Source of the DNA: a virus
Length of the DNA stretch: 64,000 nucleotides
Direction: 5' to 3' (one strand)
IMG/VR virus record: IMGVR_UViG_3300030329_005813
Span: 32,001 to 96,000 of that record
Below the pieces are notes generated by a model. It worked only from the letters and a program-made list of their open reading frames with translations, did no database searches and was not told where the DNA came from. A program made the position numbers and the translations under genes. Numbering within the stretch: the first letter of the stretch is position 1; the number at the start of each line of letters is the position of its first letter. Below, piece by piece: positions 4,070 to 28,923 of this stretch.

Positions 4070-5082
4070 GCATATAAATCAAATGTTTCTGGGTTATCCG
4101 AGAAATACAAGGTTGTATCTGGAAAAGCTTTCCCAATATAATCTTTCATTTCCTGCTCATTCTGGAATAGGATCTCGGACTTTGAGTGATCGTTGAGGCG
4201 CAATTTCCAAATACCAATTTCACGTAAGATGTCAATTTTATTAAATACGACGTGAGTTGCGCCATTTGTTCTGATTGACTTGTTTAGCATGTCATAATTG
4301 AGCCAGTTACACTGACGTGGGCGACCAGTTGTGGCGCCAAACTCATTACCAACTTTTTGAATCTTCCTAAACACCTCTTCATTAGGCTGAAATGGCTTTG
4401 ACCCGACATAAGTTTCGTAAATCTTGGCCACACCCCACACATCTCGTACTGACTGCGGAGGAAGGCCGTTTAATAAGGCTCCTGCGGACGTACAGTGGCT
4501 TGAAGTGACATATGGGTAATCGCCGTGGTCAACGTCCAGTTGATAGCCCTGAGCGCCTTCAAATAGCGCTACAACAGGCTTCTCATTATAGTGCATCTCA
4601 TGAAAGAAGTCAATAAGATAAGGCTTTAGGACTTCAACGTCTTGGGCGCGTTGACCCTTTCTGGCGTACTTGTCCCTATATGCTGGGCCATTACCAGTTT
4701 TTGTGGTGCCGATCTTCTTATCCCTGCTGTCTTCGGTAAGATGCTGTTCTTGAATAATATGTACATTATTAGATATATAAATCAAACCGTTCGTATCAAC
4801 GCCATTTTCATTCAACAGTTGAATCTCTTTGAAGAAATTGTTGATGTTTAAAACGCAACCGGGTCCAATAATAGACTTTACTCCAAAGAAAACACCAGCC
4901 GGGACAGCGTGTGTAACAAACTTTTTCCCTTTGTGATAGATGGTATGGCCAGCATTTCCGCCACCATTGTAACGAACACAGTGTGTATATTCTCGCTCTC
5001 TCAAAAGATTATGGGTTATCTTCCCTTTACCTTCGTCACCGGCCTGAAGACCGACTACAATATCTACCGTCAAACTGCTCAC
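4066..5082 (-). CDS. purA: Adenylosuccinate synthetase (short form)
   Basis: GDEGKGK, GGGNAGHT, IGTTKTGNGPAY, FEGAQG, DHGDYPYVTSS, TTGRPR, NKID. Confidence 0.95.
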   Translation of the reverse strand: MSSLTVDIVVGLQAGDEGKGKITHNLLREREYTHCVRYNGGGNAGHTIYHKGKKFVTHAVPAGVFFGVKSIIGPGCVLNINNFFKEIQLLNENGVDTNGLIYISNNVHIIQEQHLTEDSRDKKIGTTKTGNGPAYRDKYARKGQRAQDVEVLKPYLIDFFHEMHYNEKPVVALFEGAQGYQLDVDHGDYPYVTSSHCTSAGALLNGLPPQSVRDVWGVAKIYETYVGSKPFQPNEEVFRKIQKVGNEFGATTGRPRQCNWLNYDMLNKSIRTNGATHVVFNKIDILREIGIWKLRLNDHSKSEILFQNEQEMKDYIGKAFPDTTLYFSDNPETFDLYA

Positions 5083-5134: not shown

Positions 5135-8100
5135 GTGCTTTCCAAGTTTTATATGCTCGGCCTCGGGTAGAAAATCCCCATTCTAGACTATATTGCGGAC
5201 GAATCATATAGGGCTTATTTATCTGAATGTTATCGCCACCCCTGATATCAACGCCCCAGCACCGCACCCTAATATTAGAAGAGTTGCTGTCTGTTGCTTC
5301 AACAATCAAATAGTCTTTACCGTTCTTTGTCTTTTTAGGTACAATCTTACGAGGAATCAACCAGACAACTTGTAAATCTGGATCGTACTCGGAGATTGGC
5401 GGAATAGCCATAGCACTTAGCTTCGTCATAATCTCAGAATTAATAACTTTATCAATCGGAAACTGCCCGGTTAGGTCGACAAGAGATTGAATCTTCTCTT
5501 CCTCGGTAAAGTCACCTTCGGGAGCATAAAGTTCTATATTGGCCTCAAGGTTCTTAAGCTTTCGAGGACGATCAACAGCAACAGCAGACCAAAAGTGCTT
5601 CAAGCCTGTGAAGCGATTGTCCATAAGCGGTGTCAAGGTGCCTGAGCGAACAAGAACATCAAGCGACTTCTTGTTAAGCTTGGAATAACGTATCTCCTCG
5701 TTAAACAAGAAGCTTTCAACCGAGTCAAAGGGGCGACCGATAAAAATCTGGTCAATAGCGGCGTCCCCAAGGCCCTTGATTGATGTTAGGGGCTGGATAA
5801 GGCGCTTACCGTCTTTGCTAATTTCCCAGACTCTACCGGAAGTATTAATATTTAAGGGCTCAATCTCAAAACCAAACTGCTTGGCGATTGCAATAGCTTT
5901 TTCTTTACGGGTCTCTGGCTCCTTATCGAGAAACGCTGCCATCCAACACTCAGGATAGTAGTTTAGAAGCCAAGCACACTGGAATGAAATCATCGAGTAA
6001 GACACGGCATGTGATTTATTGAAGCCATAGCCAGAGAAGTATTCGAAGGTGTCCCAGAGGCGCTGGGCCTCTTTCTGTGTCATGCCGTGCAGTTCCAAAC
6101 AGCCCTGCATAAACTTCTCATACAAAGCCATCTTAACCTTGGCCGCTTTTCCAGTGCCCTTCTTGGTAAGCACCTTTCGAAGCATATTAGCCTCGTCCAG
6201 AGACAGATCCTTGCCCAACTTATGAGCCAGCATAGCAATCTGCTCTTGGAAAATAAGGAAACCATTCGTCTCCTCGGTCACTTCGCGATGAGTATCGTTG
6301 ATATATCTGACCATACCGGGGCTCTTTCGCGTCTTAACGAAGTCCTTGTCAACGTTCGCCGACAAGGGGCCAGGACGAAAGATAGAAGTGATAGCAGAGA
6401 TATCAATAATGTTTGTTGGCACCACCTGTTTGCAGAGATTCTGTGCTCCGCTTTCTGTGAACTGGAACGTGCCGGCCCACTTACCTGATTGAAATATGTT
6501 TTTGTAGATCTCTTGATCATTAAAGTCGATAACATCAGGATGAAGCATTTGATTGTAATAGTCCTTGACATCGGCGAAAGTTGGCTCTTTAATACCCTTC
6601 TCACGCTTAAGGATGTGCCGGATGGCACCATCAATCATACGCAGGGTAGAGAGGCCCAAGACATCATATTTAATAAAGCCCATAGGCTCCAAGTGCCGAA
6701 CGTTCTGCCCCTCGGACCACGGCGTTTGACGCACGTCCTTCGAGGAGATAAGCGGCATATGATGGTCAAGATTCTCGGCAATCACAACGCCACCAGCGTG
6801 ACGAGAACAGGAACGGACCTGCCCGTATAGAGCATCAACGTGTGTTGCGACATTCGGATACTTAGCCAGGAAAGAGCGAAGAGTCGTTGAGAACTCCTTT
6901 ACTTCCTCGAATGTTGGAGTATACACACCAGCCTTGATACCGTGCTTTTTCTTTGCGGCGGTTGTTGCCTCAAACATCATCTTTCCGGTTACGGCGTTGA
7001 CCTCGTGGAAAGGAATATCATAAAGTTTAGAGATATCCTTGATAAGTGACTTCAACTGGAGTGTATTCCAGTTAGAGATTGGAGCAACAGTGTTGCTGCC
7101 CCACTTCTCCACCAGAAGTTCTTTCAGCTTCATTGGCTCGGCTACATCATAGTCAATATCTGGGTAGTCGGTGGCATCGGAACGAAGGAACCGTGCGAAC
7201 TGAAGTCCATATTTAAGAGGGTCTACCTGGGTAATATCCAAAGCATATGCCACCAGGGAGCCTGCCGCAGAACCACGGCCTGGACCAGTAAGCATCACCT
7301 CGTTGGCGACCTTCGTGATCTCATTCATTGTCAAGAAATACTTGGAGAAACCTCGATCAGAGATAACTGATAGTTCGTGTTCCAAGCGCGAAGTATATTC
7401 TTCGTTTTCGTGCAGATTCTTGGCCCGCAATCCCTCAAAACAAAACTTGCGGAGAGCAGAGTCTGCCGTTTCACCCACAGGAATAACAAAGTCGGGCAGT
7501 CGAACTGTATTATCGGGCATAAACCTTTCGATTCGTTCGTGAGCAATACGATGCGTAGTGGTTATAGAATCAAGAACTAGCTTATCATCATACTCTGTTT
7601 CGCACTGGGCGGAATACTTTTTGTACGACTCCCACATCTGTTCGCCATTCTTAGGATACAACTCGTATCCGATCTCATCGACATCAACGGGAAGTTCCCC
7701 GTTATCAGCCCACGAGGGTCGGCCACGACCAAGCCACCCTAGACGCTTGTAAAGCTCTCTATCCTTCCAGGCGTCGGGGTTCGGATAATGACTGTCAGCC
7801 GTCGAGATCATCTCAACACCAAACTCCTCGCACACTTGGATGATATACTTATTAAGCTCGTGTTGCTCTGGAATGTTGTTCCATTGTAACTCGCCATACC
7901 ATCGATCACCAAAGACTTCCTGCATCCGGCGTGTAACATCACGCATAGCCTCTAGAACGGCTTCAGGGCCTTCCTCACGGTTTTCCCAGTAACACCCAGC
8001 GTAGACCCCACCTAAGCAAGCCGAGGCCGCTATGACCCCTTCAGAGTGCTTAGCGAGCAGGTCATAGTCAAGACGCGGGAAGCGATAAAAATTCTCGGGT

Positions 8101-10473: not shown

Positions 10474-10623
10474 TTATGCTTTGCCCTGACCACGATACTT
10501 TTTTCTGTAGCCCTTGGGCACTGTACCGCCAGAGTTCTTTGATTTATACTTAGTATTCTTGCTGTTTCCAATACTTGTTTTTTTAGCCCTCCCATCGGGA
10601 GACCAACCACTTTTAGCTGCCAT
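10474..10623 (-). CDS. Small basic protein (49 aa) ending KKYRGQGKA
   Basis: Translated by hand: MAAKSGWSPDGRAKKTSIGNSKNTKYKSKNSGGTVPKGYRKKYRGQGKA. Coupled to the glutaredoxin stop and missed by the ORF track. Confidence 0.75.
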   Translation of the reverse strand: MAAKSGWSPDGRAKKTSIGNSKNTKYKSKNSGGTVPKGYRKKYRGQGKA

Positions 10624-10943
10624 TATAAACTCCTTCGAAGCCTAGAGACTTCCTCTCTCAAGATTAAAACTTCTTCGCGAATTGCTTTAAGGCGGAAATT
10701 TGAGGATTCGCTTAATTTGACCAAATCATCGCATCCACCAATAAATTCATCTCCCAAAAAGATAACTGGGACTGTTTTTTGGCCCGTGTCTTCAATGATC
10801 ATTTCGCGAAGATTAAGATCTTTCGTGACATCAATTGAGTGTAGGCTGCACTTGAGTTCATTTAAAATCACATCTTTTGCCTTATCACAAAAGGGACATC
10901 CGTCCTTAATGTACATCTTAAACGCCGTTCTATTATCTAACAT
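10623..10943 (-). CDS. Glutaredoxin
   Basis: CPFC, TVPVIF, IGGCDD. Confidence 0.92.
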   Translation of the reverse strand: MLDNRTAFKMYIKDGCPFCDKAKDVILNELKCSLHSIDVTKDLNLREMIIEDTGQKTVPVIFLGDEFIGGCDDLVKLSESSNFRLKAIREEVLILREEVSRLRRSL

Positions 10944-10946
10944 TAC

Positions 10947-11225
10947 TTATTCTCCATTTTCTCGGTTTGAAGTGTCTAAAGGAACATTTTCTATTAAATT
11001 CTCTGGTAACAAGAGCTTCCATAATTCACCATACAAATCTAAAAGAATAGATTTATCCGTATTGGGAATTTGCAACTCGCTGTGTTCTTCTTCTGTGATG
11101 AACCTATTTCTTTTAAGAGTAGTTAATACCATATTTGTCATTAAATTGATATCTTTTTCTTCTAGGTTTGATCCTTCTGGCAAGGCCGCTATTAATGTGG
11201 CTTTAATTTGATCGGTTAAGTTCAA
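10947..11225 (-). CDS. Hypothetical protein
   Basis: 92-aa ORF in operon. Confidence 0.55.
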   Translation of the reverse strand: MNLTDQIKATLIAALPEGSNLEEKDINLMTNMVLTTLKRNRFITEEEHSELQIPNTDKSILLDLYGELWKLLLPENLIENVPLDTSNRENGE

Positions 11226-11446
11226 TCTTTCTTCTCTTGGTCGGGTACTGGGCGCAAATAATAAACTTTTTTCTTATTCGGGGGCTCTTCTTCATATTCT
11301 TGCATTTGACGAAACAAATCTTCAGCAGTTTTTACAGAACCGCGAAAATAACCCTCGTCGTAAGCTGACTTCCAAGTATAACGCTCCACTGCAAATGTCC
11401 ACCCTACAAAACCAGCAATACAAATAATAATTAGTATCTCATTCAC
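11222..11446 (-). CDS. Small membrane protein
   Basis: N-terminal hydrophobic helix; GTG start within the last junction repeat. Confidence 0.6.
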   Translation of the reverse strand: MNEILIIICIAGFVGWTFAVERYTWKSAYDEGYFRGSVKTAEDLFRQMQEYEEEPPNKKKVYYLRPVPDQEKKD

Positions 11447-11808
11447 TCTTCGCACCCCTGTACAACAATAGCCACAAAGTCATCGCCATCGAGAACCCAA
11501 TGACGCCTAGCAACAATCGTGTCTTCTCCAAATGCATTTAAATCTGATAGGGCTTCCTGCAAATAGTCAGGCATTGAACTCCACGGGATAGTACCAATAG
11601 TGGCGAAAAGAGAGCTTGGATCCTTGTCACCTATCGTCTCTACATCTTGCGGTGTCAGCATAGCAGTCATAACCTCTGCTGCGTGATGTGGGCATTCGTA
11701 GTCCATTTCTTTGTGATCAAAAGAAACAAACTGATTGTAAAGTGTACCTCCAACAAAAGTGCCTTCTTTTGGTTTGGACTCGATCCAAAGCGGTCCTTCA
11801 ATTTTCAC
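11443..11808 (-). CDS. Hypothetical cassette protein (ends GCEE)
   Basis: Bounded by junction repeats. Confidence 0.7.
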   Translation of the reverse strand: MKIEGPLWIESKPKEGTFVGGTLYNQFVSFDHKEMDYECPHHAAEVMTAMLTPQDVETIGDKDPSSLFATIGTIPWSSMPDYLQEALSDLNAFGEDTIVARRHWVLDGDDFVAIVVQGCEE

Positions 11809-11993
11809 TCTTCACTCTCCAGTTTATCCGCTAGCTTCTCAAGTTCCTTCATTACCATAACATAACTAATGTTTCCCGGCAAACCATCTGGTAAGACGCG
11901 CTCTATCAAATGAAGGTTCTGAGGCGGGTTTAAACAACCTTTTTTAAGTGCCTCTGCTTGATTCCTTAATATTTCTGCAATAATAAAATTCAT
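11805..11993 (-). CDS. Hypothetical cassette protein (ends ESEE)
   Basis: Bounded by junction repeats. Confidence 0.7.
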   Translation of the reverse strand: MNFIIAEILRNQAEALKKGCLNPPQNLHLIERVLPDGLPGNISYVMVMKELEKLADKLESEE

Positions 11994-12175
11994 TCTTCGC
12001 TCTCCACTCTTATAAGTTCAAACTCTTCATATCTGTAAACAATCGGGTGTTCGCCACTTCGGTCAATGACCAAATCTTTCTTCCCGGTTGATTGCATTTT
12101 CCACTTTGTATTTAAGCGACGAGTATTAGGGCTTTCGTCAGAGACTTCTACTTTTATTTCTGGTAGGTCTTTCAT
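11990..12175 (-). CDS. Hypothetical cassette protein (ends ESEE)
   Basis: Bounded by junction repeats. Confidence 0.7.
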   Translation of the reverse strand: MKDLPEIKVEVSDESPNTRRLNTKWKMQSTGKKDLVIDRSGEHPIVYRYEEFELIRVESEE

Positions 12176-12333
12176 TCTTCGCTTTCCACGTTTAGGAGTC
12201 TTATGAGTTCATCTTCAAGTTCATCAGTTAATTCCTCAAGAGGATAAAGTTCGGGACTAACCATTGTTTTTTTGTATTCTTTGCTAAACTCAACAATCTT
12301 CCAGCAAATACGTCTTAATTCATTGTCGCTCAT
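12172..12333 (-). CDS. Hypothetical cassette protein, 53 aa (ends ESEE)
   Basis: Translated by hand: MSDNELRRICWKIVEFSKEYKKTMVSPELYPLEELTDELEDELIRLLNVESEE. Missed by the ORF track. Confidence 0.7.
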   Translation of the reverse strand: MSDNELRRICWKIVEFSKEYKKTMVSPELYPLEELTDELEDELIRLLNVESEE

Positions 12334-12545
12334 TCTTCGCTCTCCTCACGAAACACGCCGTTTTCTTCTACCAATACCTTAACATCATATCTCTCAAGAA
12401 ACAAGTCCCACATCTCTTCTCCAACGACAGCACACTCTTTTCCAAAGTAGCCCTTTAGCCACTGGTGTCTCTCCCACGAGTTTGGTAGAGGGACAAAAAT
12501 AGAGTTTACTTCATTGCTAGTTCTAATGAACTTGCACTTTTTCAT
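12330..12545 (-). CDS. Hypothetical cassette protein (ends ESEE)
   Basis: Bounded by junction repeats. Confidence 0.7.
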   Translation of the reverse strand: MKKCKFIRTSNEVNSIFVPLPNSWERHQWLKGYFGKECAVVGEEMWDLFLERYDVKVLVEENGVFREESEE

Positions 12546-12772
12546 TCTTCGCTCTCCACAAGTTCAACATCCTCTAAATAGTCTTCGCTTGTATCGCCTG
12601 TCAAGAAGAATGGATTTCCCTCTGGGATTTCGTTGTCCCACTTTATGACGGCATAGAAGAAGCCTTTAGGCTCCTCTTCAATCGGGTGAATCTCCGTAAT
12701 AGTTCCTGTCCCTCTATTAAACTCGCTGTCAAGGTAGAAAAGACGATCACGAACTCTATCACCGACTTTCAT
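12542..12772 (-). CDS. Hypothetical SH3/KOW-like cassette protein (ends ESEE)
   Basis: True start MKVGDRV at 12772 within the repeat; MKVGDRV...G.IT...IKW pattern. Confidence 0.65.
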   Translation of the reverse strand: MKVGDRVRDRLFYLDSEFNRGTGTITEIHPIEEEPKGFFYAVIKWDNEIPEGNPFFLTGDTSEDYLEDVELVESEE

Positions 12773-13463
12773 TCTTCGCTCTCCGATAAGCACCAACCGC
12801 AACAGGCCATAACTCTTCTGCGATCTCCAAGCAAGCCTCAGCAACCTTTTGTATTTCCCATTGCGCCCCTTCGTGCGTGCGGAGGTCAATGAACTTTAGA
12901 AGATTGTTTAGGTTGACTGTGCCATAATACTCGGTGTACATATTTTGAGGCAGAACGCCTCTTGCTTGCTCTCGGCAAACGCCTGCTTCGATGAGGCTGT
13001 TAAATAATTCCAAAGAAATCCTATTATGTCCTAGGAATGCTTCAGAAGCAGCAACCTTATGTGCTCCAGCAAGAAACAAATCTGGATCAATCAACTCTTC
13101 GACGTTGCTTGCCTGTCGGTTGGACTTGTGTTGAGTACGGAATGCTTCGGGCTCGTAGAACTGGATGTTTACGTCAGTATACCGACGAGAAATTTCATTA
13201 TAGCTCCAAGTCCGATGACGATGATGCTGAGAACGAACGAAGAGGGGGACAGTAAAGCGGAAAGTAATAGTATTATGCTCAAACGTAGACGTGTGCCGAT
13301 GCTTAACCAAATAGCTGATAAGTTTTTTATCCTTTTCATCTAATTCTTCCTTGTGCTTCCCAAAACTGACACGAGCACTATTAACAATAGTAAGATCGTC
13401 ACCCATGTATTGCACGAGATCAACTGTTCCAATTCCATCTCCATATAGCTCGATTGATTTCAT
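12759..13463 (-). CDS. thyX: Flavin-dependent thymidylate synthase
   Basis: ARVS, HTSTFEH, RHRTWSYNEISRRY, EQARGVLP, LR...AQWEI. Confidence 0.97.
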   Translation of the reverse strand: MKSIELYGDGIGTVDLVQYMGDDLTIVNSARVSFGKHKEELDEKDKKLISYLVKHRHTSTFEHNTITFRFTVPLFVRSQHHRHRTWSYNEISRRYTDVNIQFYEPEAFRTQHKSNRQASNVEELIDPDLFLAGAHKVAASEAFLGHNRISLELFNSLIEAGVCREQARGVLPQNMYTEYYGTVNLNNLLKFIDLRTHEGAQWEIQKVAEACLEIAEELWPVAVGAYRRAKNESR

Positions 13464-14468
13464 TTATTCGCCCCATAGAGCTGAACAAATAGTGTCGGTT
13501 ACAATAGCCGTAACCTGATACGGGTCACAATTTGCATTTGGTCTCCGATCTTCAATATAGCCTACTCCCTCGATAGCGACTTGCCACGGAATACGAACTG
13601 AAGCGCCTCGGTCTGAAACGCCCCACTTAAACTCCTTATAGGAACAAGTTTCGTGCAGACCGGTTAAACGTTCTTCAATTTTATCTCCATATACGTGTAT
13701 ATGTTCAGAAGCTTTTACGGCTAGTGCTCTTGCTGCCTGCTCGTAAACTCCCTTTTCAGTACGCATCTCAACGGTAGAATAATTAGTGTGACAGCCGGCG
13801 CCGTTCCAATCTCCCTTAACGGGCTTCGGATCCCAACTAACTGATACGCCATACTTTTCGGCTACGCGCTCCAGTAAGTATCGAGCCAGCCACAAATGAT
13901 CAGCAGCCTTAACTGGTCCTAGAGGACCAACCTGAAACTCCCATTGACCCGGCATTACTTCGGCATTGATACCCGAGATGGCCAGTCCGGCTTGAAGACA
14001 TAATTCAAGATGTTCCTCGACAATTTGCCGACCAAATGCATTGGAGGCACCAACGCTACAATAATACTGTCCTTGCGGAGATGGATATCCAGTTTCTGGG
14101 AATCCTAATGGTCGACCGTCCTTAAACAACGTGTATTCCTGCTCTAGGCCGAACCACGATTCGTGTTTTTCGTACTTTTTGGCCAATTCAACACATTGAT
14201 GCCTAGTGTTTGACTTGTGTGGCGTCATGTCAGGGTTAAGTACCTCGCACAATACCAACGTAGAGTTGGGGCCACGGAGCGGGTCTGGAGTAACCGATAA
14301 GACTGGTTTTAAAACACAATCAGAGCTAGAGCCCTCGGCTTGGTTAGTAGAAGAGCCATCAAACCCCCACAGTGATAAATCATCGTTATTACCGATTACT
14401 TTTGTTTTGCTTCTTAATTGTGGTGTCGGCTCTGTGCCATCAATCCAAATATATTCTGCTAATTTCAT
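13464..14468 (-). CDS. glnII: Glutamine synthetase type II (GlnII/eukaryotic-like)
   Basis: AEYIWIDG, LRSKT, WGFDGSST, GLEQEY, NAEVMPGQWEFQVGP, DWNGAGCH, RLTGLHET, RGASVRIP, YIEDRRP. Confidence 0.95.
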   Translation of the reverse strand: MKLAEYIWIDGTEPTPQLRSKTKVIGNNDDLSLWGFDGSSTNQAEGSSSDCVLKPVLSVTPDPLRGPNSTLVLCEVLNPDMTPHKSNTRHQCVELAKKYEKHESWFGLEQEYTLFKDGRPLGFPETGYPSPQGQYYCSVGASNAFGRQIVEEHLELCLQAGLAISGINAEVMPGQWEFQVGPLGPVKAADHLWLARYLLERVAEKYGVSVSWDPKPVKGDWNGAGCHTNYSTVEMRTEKGVYEQAARALAVKASEHIHVYGDKIEERLTGLHETCSYKEFKWGVSDRGASVRIPWQVAIEGVGYIEDRRPNANCDPYQVTAIVTDTICSALWGE

Positions 14469-14499: not shown

Positions 14500-14844
14500 T
14501 TAGGCTTCTTTGCCCTTAATAATTTTCCCACAACAGTTGCACTCAAAAGGTTCAGCCAATTTAGATTCGCTCTCATTATAATTGAAAGTAACTTCCTCAT
14601 CGCTCTCTATATCGCGTAAAGACACTACAAAAAAACTGACAACCTTACAAGTAGGATTACAAGAATGATTAATATATCTACCTACCTTGTCCTCGACGTG
14701 ATATTTCTTAGATACTTGAATAGATGTTCTGGTTGGGCCTGGAACTAGCGTGCCGGTAGTCAAATCACATACCACAGCCCCTTTCTTACAAGGTTCTTTG
14801 AGGTATACACCATATACATCATTTTTAGATGCTACGTAAATCAC
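14500..14844 (-). CDS. SET-domain protein (putative lysine methyltransferase)
   Basis: RYINHSCNP, RDI..DEEVTFNY and post-SET F.C.C. Confidence 0.85.
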   Translation of the reverse strand: MIYVASKNDVYGVYLKEPCKKGAVVCDLTTGTLVPGPTRTSIQVSKKYHVEDKVGRYINHSCNPTCKVVSFFVVSLRDIESDEEVTFNYNESESKLAEPFECNCCGKIIKGKEA

Positions 14845-15452: not shown

Positions 15453-16010
15453 TTAAGAATTGTTTTCGGCCACCTTTTTACACATCTCAATAAAATAGTC
15501 TTGTGGAAACTTGTTTTTCATCCTATTTATGTCTTTATGAACGAACTGAATGTTCTCTTTTGTGTAGCCCTTGTTGCTGTCGATTCTGTCTGGTGACCAA
15601 GTATTCTTGTCAAGTTTTACGCCGGAAAGGGCGCAAACAAAGCCACTCTTCTCTAAAGCCTCGTTCATAGCTTGAATGTTTATTTCAAACGGGATGTTCC
15701 TATCCATTGCTTGACGCTCCGTTCTCCGAAACCTCGCACCCGAAATAAGCCCACAACCCTTCCAACTTGGATTACCGGAGCCATAACTATGTTTCACAGA
15801 GCACTCATAACAACGAGTAGAGGCCCCATTTACTAACTGCGTGCAGTCAGTGGGTTTTTCGGCGCCGCATTTACACTTCACCGAATAATAGTAATAGAAA
15901 TTTTTTCCCTTTTTCAACCGGATCGGCTCTGGATCTAATAATTCCCACGAACCGAACTTATGTCCCTTTGGGAATAGATTTTTGTATTTTGTTTGTCCTT
16001 TTCTTGGCAT
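15453..16010 (-). CDS. Free-standing HNH-like (homing) endonuclease
   Basis: G.KFG.W, CKCG, GNPSWKG, CALSG, SPDRIDSNKGY..ENIQFVH..IN.MK. True start MPRKG after the AAAGGAGG RBS. Confidence 0.8.
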   Translation of the reverse strand: MPRKGQTKYKNLFPKGHKFGSWELLDPEPIRLKKGKNFYYYYSVKCKCGAEKPTDCTQLVNGASTRCYECSVKHSYGSGNPSWKGCGLISGARFRRTERQAMDRNIPFEINIQAMNEALEKSGFVCALSGVKLDKNTWSPDRIDSNKGYTKENIQFVHKDINRMKNKFPQDYFIEMCKKVAENNS

Positions 16011-16089: not shown

Positions 16090-17949
16090 TTAGGTAAGTT
16101 CACAACTTCCGTTGCCTCCACAAGCTATTTCGCCCTGAAGATCGGTGTTGTCTTCGACTTCAATGACGTTTGTAAGATCGACATCAACAAGTGTTTTCAT
16201 CAACTCTTCATATTCTTCCTTAGTGCAGTCAGAAAAGGGAGCTTGGATATACGATCCTCCGTCGTAGGGAAGCACAGATAAACCATTGTAATGTTTACGA
16301 TTTTCCCACATCCACTCGCCCGTCTCTTCCCACTCGTCTTCTCGAATACTAACGGTAGCACTAACGTTATGCGTGTTTTGTCCTTTGCTATGGCCGGGTC
16401 GAATCCACTCCATACTTACTTTTTTAACGCGCTCAAGCATTGAAATAGCACTTTCTGAGCGTGTAATAGCGTTTTGTGGAGATTTTTGTGGCGCTGATAT
16501 AACAGCCGTGTCGTGAGGGCGGAAATAATCGTCCTCGACCAACTCCGGATGAAACTCCGCTAAATAACCGTAAATAGCTTCGTTTTTCCCCACTCGGATT
16601 CGTCGAATGTAGTAGTCATTGTGCCACGCGTGAATTCCAGACGAAGTACCTAGTGTTAAGGAGGTTGTTCCAGCCGGCTTGACGCAAGTGCAGCGAGCAG
16701 CCGGATTAATTCCTAACAATTTAGCGACTCGTGCATTTTCTTCTTTAACGACCTTGGCAGCTGCCTTCATATCTAGATTTAAAACTTTACCTGAGGCAAT
16801 ACCGGTCATAGAAACACCGATTAAAGCATCTTTTTCTGTTGTACGTTGCCAGACTGGACGAAGATAGTGAAAATCTGTGTAAGAAGCTTGCAAAGTACCA
16901 ATAAAGGCAGCTGCACGAACTCGATTTTCATATTCTTCCTGCGTATCGATGTCTGAAACATTAACTTCGGTTAAATTACAGAACTGAAACGGGCGCAGAG
17001 CAATTTCACAACACGGGTTTGTACCCCAGTCCTTATCATATGTAAAATAGAACCCAGGCTCCCCTGCACCAGAAGCTTTTACGCGGCTCCAAAGGTCAAG
17101 AAAAAACTCTTTTGTGACCATATGTCGCATTAAAGCAACTGAGTTGTTTGCTCGGCCACGTTGGGGGTTTTCCTCCCACCAGGAACCAGCTTTGGCGGCG
17201 ATCATTTCATCGTTATCAGCAGAAAAAAGACTAATAAGAGCAGCGCGACGAATTCCGCCGGCTAAAACAGCGTCAGCTATATAACAAACCATATCATGCA
17301 CTTCAATCGGACGTAGCTTATCGCCATTTTCCTTAGACTCAAGTATACCCTCAAGCTTAACTAAGCACTCTTTAAGAGGCTGCGGGCCTGGGGCCTTACC
17401 ACCAGATGTTACTAATCTGGCTCCCTTAGGTCTAATGTCCGAGAAATCGAAACGAAGCTTAGAAGTACCACGAAAATAAGAAGTTACAAGCGCCTTTACA
17501 GCGTCGGCCCACCCTTCAATAGAGTCACCAATAAGATATCGGTAGGTTCTCTTGCCATTTGGTTTATTAATCTCTGGCAATTTATCAACGTGGTGATTTT
17601 GTACCGAATAACCAACCCCAGTGCCACCAAGCAGCAAAAACATAATCTCACCAAAAGCACGGGTGTCGTCAATGGGCATATAGGCGCAGTTAAAGATTCG
17701 GTTGGGTGCAACTTCGATGGGTTTGCCGCCGAACTGCATCGATCTCATAGAAGGAAGTACTTTTTTCTGATGTACATATTCATATGCTTCTTCGATTTCG
17801 TCTTTTAGTTCCGGATATCTTTTAATATGCATAACTTTATTTCTATCGGCCAGTTCCGTAAATGATTCACGGCGATAAGCCTCTTTCAAGTATCTCGCAT
17901 ATTTCATATGTACTGTAATATCTGATAAAATACTAGCTGCTAATTCCAT
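16090..17949 (-). CDS. nrdJ: Class II (adenosylcobalamin-dependent) ribonucleotide reductase
   Basis: PSMRS, FNC, GGTGVG, GGIRRAA, GEPG, TNPCCEI, FCNLTEVN, KPAGTTS, C-terminal ACGGNGSC; no nrdB in window. Confidence 0.93.
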   Translation of the reverse strand: MELAASILSDITVHMKYARYLKEAYRRESFTELADRNKVMHIKRYPELKDEIEEAYEYVHQKKVLPSMRSMQFGGKPIEVAPNRIFNCAYMPIDDTRAFGEIMFLLLGGTGVGYSVQNHHVDKLPEINKPNGKRTYRYLIGDSIEGWADAVKALVTSYFRGTSKLRFDFSDIRPKGARLVTSGGKAPGPQPLKECLVKLEGILESKENGDKLRPIEVHDMVCYIADAVLAGGIRRAALISLFSADNDEMIAAKAGSWWEENPQRGRANNSVALMRHMVTKEFFLDLWSRVKASGAGEPGFYFTYDKDWGTNPCCEIALRPFQFCNLTEVNVSDIDTQEEYENRVRAAAFIGTLQASYTDFHYLRPVWQRTTEKDALIGVSMTGIASGKVLNLDMKAAAKVVKEENARVAKLLGINPAARCTCVKPAGTTSLTLGTSSGIHAWHNDYYIRRIRVGKNEAIYGYLAEFHPELVEDDYFRPHDTAVISAPQKSPQNAITRSESAISMLERVKKVSMEWIRPGHSKGQNTHNVSATVSIREDEWEETGEWMWENRKHYNGLSVLPYDGGSYIQAPFSDCTKEEYEELMKTLVDVDLTNVIEVEDNTDLQGEIACGGNGSCELT

Positions 17950-22542: not shown

Positions 22543-23667
22543 TTATTCATCTTCGCCATCAATATCATAAAATTCTTTGGCGTCGACTTCTTTCTTCTCG
22601 AATTTAAGAATAACTTCCTGTTCCATAAGTTGCAAAATGCGATTACGAAACTTGTCATCTTGCAACTTACTAATCCAAGTGGCAGACTGAAACTTTTCTT
22701 CTGAGCCATCTTCATACTTAAGCGTAAACCATGCACCGGCATTTGTAATGTGCTTAGAACTCTTAATAGCCTCTAACCAAGATTCTTCATCTTGAATCTT
22801 CACATCATCGCCTGCCCATAAGATCTTAAATGTGCATTCTCGCGCATCAGAGCCAAACCTTGACTTCTTAATCTTAGCCTTAACCTCAGTGCCAACCCTA
22901 AAGCCCTTATCGTCGTAAATGAAGCTAGCTTTTCCTCGACGGGCGGTAAGCCAGATGCGAAGCGAATAAGCGTAGATTGCAGCCTTTCCACCAGGGGTAA
23001 AATAGGGCTCCAAACGGGCTTCTGCGATATTGCTTGTAATGTTGGTCTTAAGTTGGTTTAGGATAAGCAAGGTTGATTGTGAGTTGGCAATCGGCACAGT
23101 TAACTTAGAAAACCCTTTTGACAAAATACGAGGCTTAACCGCCATACTGGATAAAGGATTGAAATCACCATCGATATCCGAAATAGCAGGCGTCATAGCC
23201 AGCGAATCCCAGATAAAAAGCATTTGGTTTTCATTGCCGGCTAATAACTCCTCAATCGTTTCTAGAACAAACTCGACCGATTGAGCCTGGATATAAAGTA
23301 GATTTTCAATATCACAGCCCGCATTTGCCAAAAACTCTGGGTCTACAGCAGACTCAGAGTCAAAATATACCACATCAATCCCCATTTTCTGAGCATTGCC
23401 AGCAACCTGAGCCGCCATATATGACTTACCAGACGCTGAAAGACCAGCAATCTCGCTGATCTTACCCACTGGAATCCCAGCATACCTGCCTCGACAAATA
23501 ATAGAGTTTAACCAACGAGATCCGGTTGGGATCCACTGCTTAACTTCTGTAGGATTTGAATCCCCTAGGTCGTGTGCCACAGTTACGCCGGCCTTTTTAT
23601 TAACAATCTTTCGCATATCAGCGATAGAAAGTTTTCCAGCTTTAGGCTTTTTTGATGTACGTGGCAT
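22543..23667 (-). CDS. uvsX: RecA/UvsX recombinase
   Basis: IPTGS, GLSASGKS, FDSE, IWDSL, LNQ, TPGG.A..YAYSLRI. Confidence 0.93.
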   Translation of the reverse strand: MPRTSKKPKAGKLSIADMRKIVNKKAGVTVAHDLGDSNPTEVKQWIPTGSRWLNSIICRGRYAGIPVGKISEIAGLSASGKSYMAAQVAGNAQKMGIDVVYFDSESAVDPEFLANAGCDIENLLYIQAQSVEFVLETIEELLAGNENQMLFIWDSLAMTPAISDIDGDFNPLSSMAVKPRILSKGFSKLTVPIANSQSTLLILNQLKTNITSNIAEARLEPYFTPGGKAAIYAYSLRIWLTARRGKASFIYDDKGFRVGTEVKAKIKKSRFGSDARECTFKILWAGDDVKIQDEESWLEAIKSSKHITNAGAWFTLKYEDGSEEKFQSATWISKLQDDKFRNRILQLMEQEVILKFEKKEVDAKEFYDIDGEDE

Positions 23668-25601: not shown

Positions 25602-26432
25602 CTAGCTTTGAATTTTTGAACTATAAGCTAAGACGTAGCCATAATCCATTTCGTAGTTGGTAGGAAATACTCCAAATGAAACATTTACTGTTTCGTCCTT
25701 CACTTTTCCTTTCATTTGCGAAACAATCTTCGTATGAAGGTCGCCGTCTTCTCGCAATCTTTCCTCATTTACCCCATAAATATAACTGATTTCTTCAGGG
25801 CTGTCAAGAGGAAAAAACAATTTTTCTTCATCTTTTTCGATATCATAGATTCCAAGTGTACAAATTTTACGAATCTTACTCGGAGGAGATAAAGATCCCA
25901 TAACAGGCTCAGCGTTGTTGAAGATGTTAACCATATGCATCGTATATACAATTAAATCATTCAATTTCTTGTAGTAGCCCATAATCGGTACAGTACCTAA
26001 GATACTCTCTACTAACGTATTTGACACCAAATAAATCTTGTTAATTGCTGCTGAACGAGCATATTGTTGTAATACGTTATAAGTTACTTTTTCGTGGAGT
26101 CGCTTGGGCTCACTTAATAGCTGTGTGTCTGGGTGGACGTACAGTACATTTATAGCGCACGAATCCTTGATTTCTTCCATTATGCGAAGACACATACCAG
26201 ATATGTCGCCAGAGCCACCAATGACGAAAATAGTCTCTCCCTCAATATCTTTAAAAAACTCTTTAAAAGAGGGAGCGTTCTTTTCATACTCCTCTGGTCC
26301 TCGCTGCTTTTCCACACCGTAGCAGGACGGACCCACGAGGCCAACATCAATCTTGAATATTTTATATTCTGGATATTCGCCGAATCTATCGGCAATAGCG
26401 CATCCAGCTTTTCCAAGTCCAATGACATTCAT
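25602..26432 (-). CDS. Divergent tubulin/FtsZ-like protein (PhuZ-like)
   Basis: MNVIGLGKAGCAIAD (T1 loop), GGSGDISG at the T4-loop position, V.P, LVSN, N..I. Confidence 0.7.
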   Translation of the reverse strand: MNVIGLGKAGCAIADRFGEYPEYKIFKIDVGLVGPSCYGVEKQRGPEEYEKNAPSFKEFFKDIEGETIFVIGGSGDISGMCLRIMEEIKDSCAINVLYVHPDTQLLSEPKRLHEKVTYNVLQQYARSAAINKIYLVSNTLVESILGTVPIMGYYKKLNDLIVYTMHMVNIFNNAEPVMGSLSPPSKIRKICTLGIYDIEKDEEKLFFPLDSPEEISYIYGVNEERLREDGDLHTKIVSQMKGKVKDETVNVSFGVFPTNYEMDYGYVLAYSSKIQS

Positions 26433-27616
26433 AGATTTAACGCCCTTAAGTTTCCGAAATCTTTCCCAGCCTTCACGTTTACCATAAATTTGCCCAAGGC
26501 CGTGTTGGAAAAGATTTCAATCATCTCTGGTATAATATACCTCTCTTCATCTGGAATGTCAAGTACAATATTATCGTGAATCGTAAAAGCGATGAAAGAA
26601 CGTCGATCTTTTAAGAAATTATTTATTTTAATCACTTGCCTCAACACAAGGTCGGCAGTGGTGCTTTGGATGATATAGTTCAGGGCATGCTTGTCGTCGG
26701 CTTCAATTTCTCGACCAAACATTGTCTTGACAAGTCCATCGGCCCAATACATCCCTTTTACTTTATCGCGATCATATACGCGTGAAAGGGTAGGGTTAAT
26801 TTTGTTCTCATCATACAGCCACGAGAAGAGCCTTTGCTTAGCCTCTACACGCGTTGTGCCTTTAGGGAACACGTTACCCGCATTCCACTCGTGGATGTCT
26901 TCTAGGGGTGTTGTAGAGCCTCCTAGAGCCATCAGCGTTCGCAGTTCCGCTGCGTTGAAATCAAGCTCAACAAACCAGTCCTGAGTCGGTTTCACGATGG
27001 AACGAAAGTCTTTATCCATTGTCATAATGGGAAAAGAGTCTTTTTGGGTCGTTAACCGCCCAGTTTTCGTTCCAACAATATTATAGCGACAATATGGCTC
27101 AATTTGAGCGTACTTTTTCATTGCCTGACGGAATTTAGGCAAGTGTGCCCGTTCTACCAGGGAAGATGTGTCAATATTTAGCTTCTGATATCGAATACGA
27201 GTCAAAACTTTTGTTAAATCAACCAAAAAGTCGTAATTTTGCGGTTTTTCATAGTTTTCAAACACATATTGAGTGATTTTATTACGAATTTCACAATAAT
27301 CAATCAAAAATGACCTTGGAACAAGGTCAAAAAAACAATTCTCGTTCATATTGACCTTTGCCAACACAAACGAGCGATAAAATGCCTTTAATTTTGTCTC
27401 TACTACAATCCAATCGTCAATTAACGAGCTTGGACAAGCATCATTAAGGCTCCGATTTCCGCAGAGTATACTAGCGTACTCAACATCGTTTTTTTCAAGA
27501 TACTCCGCATACTTCCACGTTTTTGTAATGTCTTCTGGGATGGACCCGAAACACAGTTTTCCATTTTTATAAACTCCTACACATTCGCCTTTGTCATCAA
27601 GCGTTTGAAAATACAA
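26429..27616 (-). CDS. Compact family A DNA polymerase-like protein
   Basis: TKTGRL, motif A LDFNAAELR, DIH, R..AK, TMFGR, NYIIQSTTAD, motif C IHDN; no exonuclease domains. Promoter at 27775-27803. Confidence 0.8.
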   Translation of the reverse strand: MYFQTLDDKGECVGVYKNGKLCFGSIPEDITKTWKYAEYLEKNDVEYASILCGNRSLNDACPSSLIDDWIVVETKLKAFYRSFVLAKVNMNENCFFDLVPRSFLIDYCEIRNKITQYVFENYEKPQNYDFLVDLTKVLTRIRYQKLNIDTSSLVERAHLPKFRQAMKKYAQIEPYCRYNIVGTKTGRLTTQKDSFPIMTMDKDFRSIVKPTQDWFVELDFNAAELRTLMALGGSTTPLEDIHEWNAGNVFPKGTTRVEAKQRLFSWLYDENKINPTLSRVYDRDKVKGMYWADGLVKTMFGREIEADDKHALNYIIQSTTADLVLRQVIKINNFLKDRRSFIAFTIHDNIVLDIPDEERYIIPEMIEIFSNTALGKFMVNVKAGKDFGNLRALNL

Positions 27617-27624
27617 TTTTCCCC

Positions 27625-28923
27625 CTAGAAAAAGATCTTTCTTGTTTTTTTGGCCTGACTAGTAATGTTTTCGTTTGTTTTATTCTCGCCCTCTGGCGAA
27701 ATCCTTTGTCTTGCTTTTTCGTTAGCGTATGCCAACGAGCCCTCATAAAATGTAACGCCCGAAAACTTCTTCTTAATGTAACTCATCGCGGCTCGCGTGT
27801 CAAGGGTTTTTATTATATCTTTTGCAACTTCTGTTATTTTAGTGAGTGCAGGGGCAGAATAGTCTAAACCAGTTTCAATATTTCTGGCTTTTATAAAATA
27901 TTCAACCCAGTAGGAATCATCATATGCATCATCAAACTGACTTCTAGACAGAAACGACCTAGCTTCTCTTGTCTTGGTGGTTCTGGCTGAAGAATGTGTA
28001 ACTGTTATATTAATGGGATTGTCTTTTACAAATTGGTTATAGAGTCTAAAAATGTATGTTTTAAATACTTCCAGTTCTTTCGCGGCTGTTTGTATAAAAA
28101 ATAGATTTGATATATCCAATGGACTGTTGACCGAAGGCTCATAGACTCTAGCGTAATTTATCATAACTTCCGAGTTTATATCCGCCATTAGGCGCCAAGG
28201 GATGTTTTTATCGATTACAAAACCGTGCTTAACTGCTAACTCAGTATAGCACGCAAAGTTGGGGCTGTCAATAAATTTCTTTTTTGCCTCGTCTTCGCTA
28301 TATGGAAGATTTAATATATCAATACCTAAGCCACTAATTAACGGATCGCAAAATCTACTCATAATAAATCCGCTTTTTGTGTACGGAAACCCGCCGGAAG
28401 ATTCAAATAAATAAAACATCTCTCTCATAAAATCGTCTAGATTTTGAATTTTGTGTTTGATATTGTTGATATTGATATGCGTTAAAAAAGAGTTATAGAA
28501 ACTTTTTTGCATTTCATTATACATTCTATCGATTGACACATAGCCCTTTACCGGGACCATCTCCGATAGGTATGGATCATCGGTGGCTAACTTACCTGCG
28601 CGGACATTTAATATATAATCGTTCTGGAATCTTTGGAATGCATCCGACACAAAGTTAAGGACGTTGACTGATCCGGCTTTAGTCGGGATCGGCTTTAAGT
28701 ATGGCAGATAAGGCTCGTGTGGCTCCAAAAAGTTATTTGCACTAACTCTTCCGTAGAATGTTATCTCATTCCACCAAAAGTCTTGAGTATTCGGAGGAAA
28801 TAAAGCTACATTTGGGTCAGTTTGTTCAACGGTTTGTACTCCATAGGCATGATTTCTATAATAGAGTCGTTTATTAAACATTTCTCGTGCTTTTAAATTG
28901 TTTTTTCCTTTAAAATCGGCCAT
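27625..28923 (-). CDS. Hypothetical virion/baseplate-region protein
   Basis: 432 aa at the end of the tail operon. Confidence 0.55.
   Translation of the reverse strand: MADFKGKNNLKAREMFNKRLYYRNHAYGVQTVEQTDPNVALFPPNTQDFWWNEITFYGRVSANNFLEPHEPYLPYLKPIPTKAGSVNVLNFVSDAFQRFQNDYILNVRAGKLATDDPYLSEMVPVKGYVSIDRMYNEMQKSFYNSFLTHININNIKHKIQNLDDFMREMFYLFESSGGFPYTKSGFIMSRFCDPLISGLGIDILNLPYSEDEAKKKFIDSPNFACYTELAVKHGFVIDKNIPWRLMADINSEVMINYARVYEPSVNSPLDISNLFFIQTAAKELEVFKTYIFRLYNQFVKDNPINITVTHSSARTTKTREARSFLSRSQFDDAYDDSYWVEYFIKARNIETGLDYSAPALTKITEVAKDIIKTLDTRAAMSYIKKKFSGVTFYEGSLAYANEKARQRISPEGENKTNENITSQAKKTRKIFF

Follow-up and report, generated by a model that had tools for sequence, protein, structure and literature searches.

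We analysed a 64,000-nucleotide stretch of viral DNA (hereafter the window), bases 32001–96000 of the 172-kb IMG/VR virus record IMGVR_UViG_3300030329_005813 (estimated completeness 95%), whose source is an uncultured marine T4-like myovirus. Downstream of thyX, the window carries seven copies of a 16-nt motif, GGAGAGCGAAGAATGA, each of them joining one gene to the next, and the same motif is typical of a lineage of such phages. As judged from sequence comparison with relatives, the motif is conserved as nucleotides rather than as a peptide, and exchanges of the small genes lying between its copies (hereafter cassettes) take place at the motif itself. Most probably, the motif is a translational-coupling adaptor that doubles as a recombination linker and serves as the standard gene-junction adaptor of this lineage.

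The motif array downstream of thyX

The seven copies are found at positions 11443–12784, all on the minus strand, whereas dinucleotide shuffles of the sequence lead to an expectation of 0.79 copies on average and 3 at most. Every interval between two copies holds one open reading frame (ORF), of 76, 71, 53, 61, 62 and 121 aa, and a 74-aa ORF comes after the last copy. Within the motif, the TGA stop of each ORF overlaps the ATG or GTG of the next one; the ORFs end in E-S-E-E-TGA, and a GGAG is placed 8 nt before the start codon. The seven proteins are mutually unrelated (best pairwise BLASTP E = 1.3), and a search of 8 small ORFs gave no Pfam or PHROG match for any of them. The number of copies, their spacing, the single small ORF per interval and the absence of similarity between these ORFs had been described in an initial annotation made from the letters of the window, and all of these points hold.

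The thyX gene (12759–13463; this feature and the following ones are on the minus strand) encodes a 234-aa FAD-dependent thymidylate synthase, assigned by tblastn to phage ThyX and by Pfam Thy1 matches of its orthologues. Its last codons (YRRAKNESR, followed by the stop) run through copy 1 (12769–12784, perfect) in a frame other than the cassette frame, as the initial annotation had also noticed, and this copy, located within the 3' end of thyX, supplies the Shine-Dalgarno (SD) sequence and the ATG of cassette 1. Cassette 1 (76 aa, 12542–12772) ends in VESEE and has a homologue with 92% nt identity in locus L013. Copy 2 (12542–12557, perfect) contains its stop together with the SD and start of cassette 2 (71 aa, 12330–12545), which is 91–94% nt identical, from motif to motif, to sequences in L036 and L108. 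Copy 3 (12330–12345), also perfect, leads cassette 3 (53 aa, 12172–12333), for which there is no homologue among the fetched loci. Copy 4 (12172–12187) shows 1 mismatch (GGAAAG..) and leads cassette 4 (61 aa, 11990–12175), whose homologue in L036 (91.5% nt identity) sits at another hotspot, after a PolA-like gene. The perfect copy 5 (11990–12005) precedes cassette 5 (62 aa, 11805–11993), again with no homologue among the fetched loci. The last two copies both have a GTG start: copy 6 (11805–11820, 2 mismatches) leads cassette 6 (121 aa, 11443–11808), a member of a marine family of 21 clusters, and copy 7 (11443–11458, 3 mismatches) leads cassette 7 (74 aa, or 77 aa from an upstream GTG; 11222–11446), which has a hydrophobic N-terminal segment. 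The initial annotation was therefore right about the 2 and 3 mismatches of the two distal copies, and its statement that the copies near thyX are perfect is true of most of them, with the exception of that at 12172.

At the 3' end of cassette 7, a TTGA overlap with the next gene takes the place of the motif. This gene, a 92-aa ORF (10947–11225), starts at a purine-rich TTGA junction, AGAGAAGAAAGATTGA, with 5 mismatches to the motif, which is possibly a decayed motif junction or else an ordinary ribosome-binding site (RBS). It is followed by a glutaredoxin gene (10623–10943), the first gene of a conserved downstream block. No sigma-70-like promoter and no terminator-like stem-loop was found on the coding strand within 11222–12784; since the array has no such internal promoter or terminator, the cassettes are not autonomous units. 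The motif itself, as read off its letters, is not palindromic and contains no inverted repeat, no self-complementarity and no −35/−10 hexamers.

A scan of the whole 172-kb genome gave only 2–3 further copies. One, at genome position 16165, is intergenic and lies ahead of a Zn-ribbon gene; another, at genome position 21885, has its ATG shifted; and another copy has 3 mismatches. The average start context of ~200 genes of this genome consists of a weak purine-rich SD and then an A/T-rich spacer, in which the C at −6 and the G at −5 of the motif are uncommon, and the 4-nt overlap is used by 27 of about 200 gene junctions. Both the small number of genome-wide copies and the different generic start context rule out that the motif is a generic RBS.

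Cassette exchange among relatives

Relatives were collected in two ways, by an exact 16-mer scan of IMG/VR (112 loci) and by thyX homology, and together these fetches gave the 177 non-redundant loci analysed (numbered with the prefix L), which include flanks of up to 7 kb. The second set was blind to the motif and is made of the best 80 of 574 thyX relatives (71–85% aa identity); arrays are present in roughly half of these 80. At least 2 copies occur in 49/177 loci and at least 3 in 33/177, with a maximum of 12 per locus. Arrays made of the 16-mer or of its G6A variant are present in at least 49 viral contigs in addition to that of the window. Altogether, 281 copies lead 200 distinct proteins belonging to 120 families, with a median length of 78 aa and with 85% of them not exceeding 130 aa. 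In a logo of 236 distinct copies, the information is confined to the 16 positions, with none in the flanks.

The flanks of the array are syntenic in these relatives: upstream are a helicase, RNR, small genes and thyX, and downstream are glutaredoxin and two genes of ~290 aa each. The interval from thyX to this downstream block holds anything from 0 to 14 genes, and the order of the cassettes varies. At one extreme, a perfect motif joins thyX straight to glutaredoxin (L150, an empty array), and in L173, L188, L189 and L193 the downstream block abuts thyX. The family of cassette 2 illustrates the variation in rank, being first in L010, second in the window and in L111, third in L066 and last in L025 and L049. 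The motif-less type of junction is also present in the same intervals, and the motif also leads some conserved genes in relatives.

A second hotspot is located after the PolA-like gene in L036, L058, L065, L108 and L110. It shares cassette families with the thyX arrays, including homologues of cassettes 2, 4 and 6 of the window. In the window genome, the corresponding junction (26425–26440, minus strand), between the PolA-like gene (26429–27616) and the next conserved gene (25602–26432), is empty and the motif is absent (~26432). At this place (26429–28923, minus strand) we also observed two adjacent ORFs of 432 and 395 aa, which may represent a split polymerase since the second one has only the C-terminal part of the family-A DNA polymerase domain.

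Where sequence identity stops was examined along four independent lines, all of which locate the exchanges at the motif. In 93 pairs of homologous cassettes that have different upstream neighbours, identity is 0.82–1.0 in the motif and ~0.3 from position −1 upstream; the value within the motif partly reflects the selection of copies, and it is the sharp edge that constitutes the result. When non-redundant loci were aligned by BLASTN (≥90% identity), 174/337 (52%) of the internal ends of high-scoring segment pairs (HSPs) fell within 5 nt of a copy, compared with 0.6% expected from coverage. Cassettes 1, 2 and 4 of the window match L013, L036/L108 and L036, respectively, with 91–94% nt identity, and their HSPs run from motif to motif (12542–12774, 12330–12557 and 11989–12188). 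The backbones of the contigs that share these cassettes with the window are far more diverged than the cassettes themselves; indeed, the L013 thyX is only 24% aa identical to that of the window despite the 92% nt identity of its cassette 1 homologue.

Closely related genomes point to the same boundaries. Two pairs with backbones 97–99.5% identical differ by indels bounded by two motif copies. The backbones of L058 and L108 are 99.5% identical up to the motif, where an indel of four cassettes (1.4 kb), flanked exactly by two copies, distinguishes them; at its junction, L108 retains the left-hand motif variant, and the crossover is thus placed in the shared 3' 9 nt. Likewise, a 2-cassette indel between motif copies separates L152 from L167. 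The pairs L030/L121 and L122/L130, with 97% backbones, carry different arrays whose boundaries are at motif copies. In L197/L198, the 80% identical backbone ends at the last base of the motif and resumes at a SAM-lyase gene, and one cassette is 93% identical yet found at a different rank. Within L197, the last 80 nt before the motif of two different cassettes (4472–4551 and 5361–5440) are 91% identical, a pattern suggestive of gene conversion or of a chimeric cassette that extends from the junction.

These comparisons of the thyX–glutaredoxin interval agree with the proposal of the initial annotation that relatives differ in the number and order of their cassettes and that the breakpoints coincide with the repeat. 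The same annotation had named constant gene content in relatives and a generic, genome-wide RBS as outcomes speaking against cassette exchange; gene content does differ among relatives, and the motif is not a genome-wide RBS. In contrast, its proposal that cassettes are gained at the thyX end was not supported. Going away from thyX, the strict numbers of mismatches in the window are 0, 0, 0, 1, 0, 2, 3 and then 5–6 (the last junctions score 4–5 if an A is tolerated at position 6), and the fraction of near-perfect junctions falls with rank across arrays. Semi-conserved distal genes account equally well for this decay of quality with distance. Moreover, exchanges and indels are internal and also occur at the second hotspot, and several arrays (L194, L187 and L167) start only after 1–2 non-motif genes. 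Insertion at the thyX end is thus not demonstrated.

Conservation of the motif and its possible roles

The initial annotation had proposed that the element is conserved as DNA and not as peptide, and the frames in which the motif is read support this proposal. In a set of 221 distinct copies, the upstream ORF reads 158 of them in the stop frame, 35 in the third frame and 7 in the ATG frame, and the other 21 are intergenic, without a long upstream ORF; the perfection of the motif is equal across all these classes. The thyX orthologues that carry the motif keep it in the same frame (RRAKN), and the tail of the protein is then set by the next cassette (ESR, E, ERG, DL, EEV, ECS or EHA before the stop). 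A second type of thyX, 24–27% aa identical to that of the window, also has these 16 nt at its end, where they are translated as ESEE or ENEE.

The cassette families are under purifying selection, with dN/dS of 0.06–0.31, and the motif is still intact at dS values from 0.1 to ~1.2. In all the relatives examined, the 121-aa family of cassette 6 (dN/dS 0.26) is led by the motif, and the gene upstream of it differs each time. The last four residues of the family are the least conserved (ESEE, ENEE, ENEQ, EGEE, GCEE, ERKKS...), and the AlphaFold2 model of the family shows them as disordered. This model has a mean pLDDT of 69, and a Foldseek comparison with the PDB gave nothing below E = 0.3; no tblastn match to the 121-aa cassette was found in isolates.

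Two further observations concern the genes around the motif. The second thyX type (L011, L021, L034, L037, L051, L090, L098 and L105) occupies the same backbone position with the motif in frame 0, and in L072 and L170 the motif leads thyX itself. Because a second type at the same position ends in the motif and thyX can be motif-led, thyX itself may be exchangeable as a cassette. In L058 (2091–2660, oriented), a 185-aa ORF contains an internal copy of the motif, read in the ATG frame, and has the appearance of two cassettes fused in frame; copies of this type are the 7/221 mentioned above.

How the motif could act at two levels is as follows. On the mRNA, it would give the Shine-Dalgarno GGAG, an 8-nt spacer and the overlapping start/stop ATGA. 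The promoter-less minigenes between copies would be co-transcribed with thyX and translated in succession from the thyX operon transcript, by termination-reinitiation at each ATGA. On the DNA, the identical copies would provide short homology to the general recombination/replication machinery of the phage, for which the UvsX-like recombinase of the window (22543–23667, minus strand) is a candidate enzyme. Recombination at the motif would lead to deletion and duplication within one genome, and to insertion, replacement and reordering between co-infecting relatives. Every product would be in register and expressed, and the cargo would be a large pool of small proteins under purifying selection. 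The enzymology and any circular intermediate are parts of this scheme that we infer.

Several points weigh against this combined role of adaptor and linker. Translational coupling and co-transcription are deduced from the sequence. At 16 nt (9 nt in the case of the L058/L108 crossover), the motif offers little length for homologous recombination to be efficient, and a helper factor is therefore possible. The exact conservation of the 8-nt spacer exceeds the needs of an SD-plus-ATGA function; linker hitch-hiking can explain it, and equally so can an RNA- or DNA-binding factor. The motif is missing from about half of the thyX orthologues and has disappeared from some cassette families, meaning that it is dispensable for cassette expression. 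Finally, the comparison sequences are all metagenome assemblies. Assembly chimeras are nevertheless an unlikely source of the arrays, since identical arrays were seen in independent samples (L025/L085/L120, L037/L051/L105 and L197/L200/L201) and a 16-nt repeat is shorter than assembler k-mers.

The same spacer conservation, beyond the needs of the SD, would also be expected if the motif were mainly a cis-regulatory RNA operator, that is, a repressor or RNase site following a RegA- or RegB-like logic, with recombination as a by-product. T4 RegB cleaves GGAG in the SDs of early genes, and single genes outside arrays (those at 16165 and 21885), together with the conserved genes of relatives noted above, are motif-led. 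We nonetheless hold this explanation to be unlikely. By itself it leaves the shuffling of cassettes unexplained, and cassette families can lose the motif. No RegA (PF01818) or RegB (PF10715) homologue was found, which is a weak negative since the control genomes gave none either. The orthologues of the Zn-ribbon gene at 16165 (19 loci) do not have the motif, a point that can be listed against an operator yet is uninformative for the idea of a regulator. An operator role is, moreover, compatible with the adaptor and linker reading.

A dedicated site-specific system, in which an unrecognised phage nuclease or recombinase acts on the 16-mer in the manner of an integron without IntI, is very unlikely in our opinion. 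Three features are in its favour: all 16 nt are conserved, spacer included, with sharp edges; arrays are found at few preferred hotspots; and position 6 is either A or G in a manner that depends on the genome. The G6A variant, GGAGAACGAAGAATGA, is dominant in some genomes (11/12 copies in L187; also L160, L167 and L178) and the G6 form in others (the window genome, L194 and L143), and this within-genome uniformity is above that of all 10,000 permutations (p<1e-4). Against it, no match to Phage_integrase (PF00589) or Resolvase (PF00239) was found in the whole 95%-complete genome, whereas the controls were positive for both profiles (all 14 control genomes in the case of the integrase); the initial annotation had seen no integrase in the window, and this now extends to the genome. 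In addition, the motif is neither a palindrome nor an inverted repeat, motif-less junctions share the same intervals, and the L058/L108 crossover in the shared 3' 9 nt is what homology-driven exchange predicts. A broader version, in which the 16-mer is the site of a dedicated and so far unrecognised phage factor (a nuclease/recombinase or else a regulator that binds RNA, in co-evolution with the A6 or G6 'house' variant), seems to us quite unlikely. If it were true, lytic marine myoviruses would run a true cassette-capture system, an integron analogue without a tyrosine recombinase, with several hotspots and with over 100 minigene families in a common pool.

The repeat could also be a functional C-terminal peptide tag, E-S-E-E, common to the small proteins, as 158/221 copies read E(S/N)EE before the stop and six of the window proteins end in this way. 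We rejected this extremely improbable explanation on frame usage and on the variable tail of the 121-aa family: 63/221 copies are in other frames or intergenic and are just as perfect, thyX reads the motif as RRAKNE, and the four residues concerned are the most variable part of the 121-aa family and disordered in its model. An origin of the array by tandem duplication of one gene and later divergence, with the repeat as a remnant, would fit ORFs of similar size placed head to tail, but its likelihood is negligible and it was also rejected, as the window cassettes have no mutual similarity and the cargo comprises 120 families, the motif is invariant though the dS of cassettes is high, and single cassettes are common to otherwise divergent genomes.

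Genomic setting and comparison with known systems

The window encodes a terminase, a portal, a major head protein, a UvsX-like recombinase and a DnaB-like helicase. The closest isolates for TerL are Flavobacterium phage immuto (45% identical) and Microcystis phage Mel-JY01 (41%), and no near-identical cultured relative appeared among 50,697 phage records when the region was searched by megablast. The relatives come from marine metagenomes, Tara included. In the window, the order of the genes is RNR ... SET-domain protein, glutamine-synthetase-like gene, thyX, array and glutaredoxin.

Some neighbouring genes deserve mention. The second gene upstream of thyX (14500–14844, minus strand) encodes a 114-aa SET-domain protein (PF00856, E = 1.8e-11), putatively a minimal SET methyltransferase in a bacteriophage. 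Directly upstream of thyX, the 334-aa glutamine-synthetase-like gene (13464–14468, minus strand) contains both Gln-synt_N and Gln-synt_C. In L019, a motif array comes directly after this gene, without an intervening thyX; in L108 it is also without an adjacent thyX, and two small ORFs and a gene of the cassette 2 family precede the motif junction. Right after glutaredoxin, a 49-aa, very basic ORF rich in K, R and G (10474–10623, minus strand) had no family match. A 114-aa ORF in genome C1 (~15535–15879; L005:871–1215, minus strand) resembles an HNH-type endonuclease (CxxC...HH...CHNCH, called by eye only) and lies within a small-gene region near the isolated motif copy at 16165. Around the thyX region of L129 (3524–11620), there are at least 4 tRNA-like sequences with a repeated D-arm motif, TAGCTCAGTTGG.

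The closest parallel to the array is found in the PeSL (promoter-early stem-loop) cassettes of T4-type phages, in which a repeated promoter and stem-loop flank ORFans (Arbiol et al. 2010, PMC2839356; Comeau et al. 2014, PMC4122927). The phages RB49/phi1, T4/PST and KVP40/nt-1 differ by indels at PeSLs, and PeSLs form mini-circles (PMC2839356, PMC4122927). In both cases, hyperplastic regions of T4-like genomes contain small ORFans separated by repeats of a short, conserved signal for expression, with hotspots near replication genes, including that of DNA polymerase; indels or replacements between relatives map to the element, there is no integrase, and general recombination at short homology is invoked. 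However, PeSLs are intergenic and consist of a sigma-70-type promoter and a terminator stem-loop, each cassette being its own transcription unit, whereas the present element, a 16-nt SD/stop/start overlap that is partly coding, has no promoter, stem-loop or intergenic space, and its cassettes would depend on upstream transcription and translational coupling. The two have no common sequence, and the mini-circles on record are those of PeSLs. As both defining structural features of PeSLs (promoter and stem-loop) are missing, the element is not a member of that family and is instead its analogue at the level of translation.

The modular theory (Botstein 1980), as discussed in PMC2839356 and in the form summarised in PMC3029335, involves short conserved 'linker' sequences at module boundaries. 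The motif is a clear instance of such boundary sequences: it is short, it lies between unrelated modules, and homologous exchange at it keeps placement and regulation correct. Compared with linker sequences in general, it is a single exact 16-mer present at hundreds of boundaries, in many genomes and with 120 cargo families, and it is located at the stop/start overlap itself.

The likeness to integrons and CRISPR arrays put forward by the initial annotation holds for the logic only, since no recombinase was found; attC-type structures and cas genes were not separately searched. As in integrons, unrelated promoter-less cassettes lie in one orientation, are probably expressed from upstream, and vary in number and order. 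In contrast, integrons have an IntI-type tyrosine recombinase, of which PF00589 and PF00239 searches gave no sign here, attC sites that are imperfect inverted repeats instead of a 16-nt non-palindromic junction with sharp edges and no conserved flanks, and an attI/Pc platform that is not part of the present array; furthermore, the exchanges described here are not confined to the proximal end and the host genome is a lytic-type myovirus. CRISPR spacers are non-coding, whereas the intervals of the array are complete ORFs under purifying selection. The ATGA coupling of phage and bacterial operons is similar in having an SD within the upstream gene, ahead of the overlap, but ordinary ATGA junctions are not identical to each other, and the present 16 nt are fixed and common to many genomes. 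The exact 16-mer was absent from the papers searched, and keyword searches on stop/start linker arrays gave nothing relevant except the PeSL and boundary-sequence papers.

Phage genomes are mosaic, and it has long been asked how small accessory genes pass from one to another. In other phages, such genes often serve host take-over or anti-defence. Since a conserved sequence is rarely found at module boundaries, the linker model has been short of clear examples. The array described here, which belongs to a lineage of marine phages that is abundant, offers a clean system to study gene shuffling mediated by linkers, one in which expression of the incoming gene would be built in. It also gives a rule by which hotspots of accessory genes can be located in phage genomes from metagenomes, a catalogue of mobile minigenes for function screens and a natural design to stack co-expressed genes.

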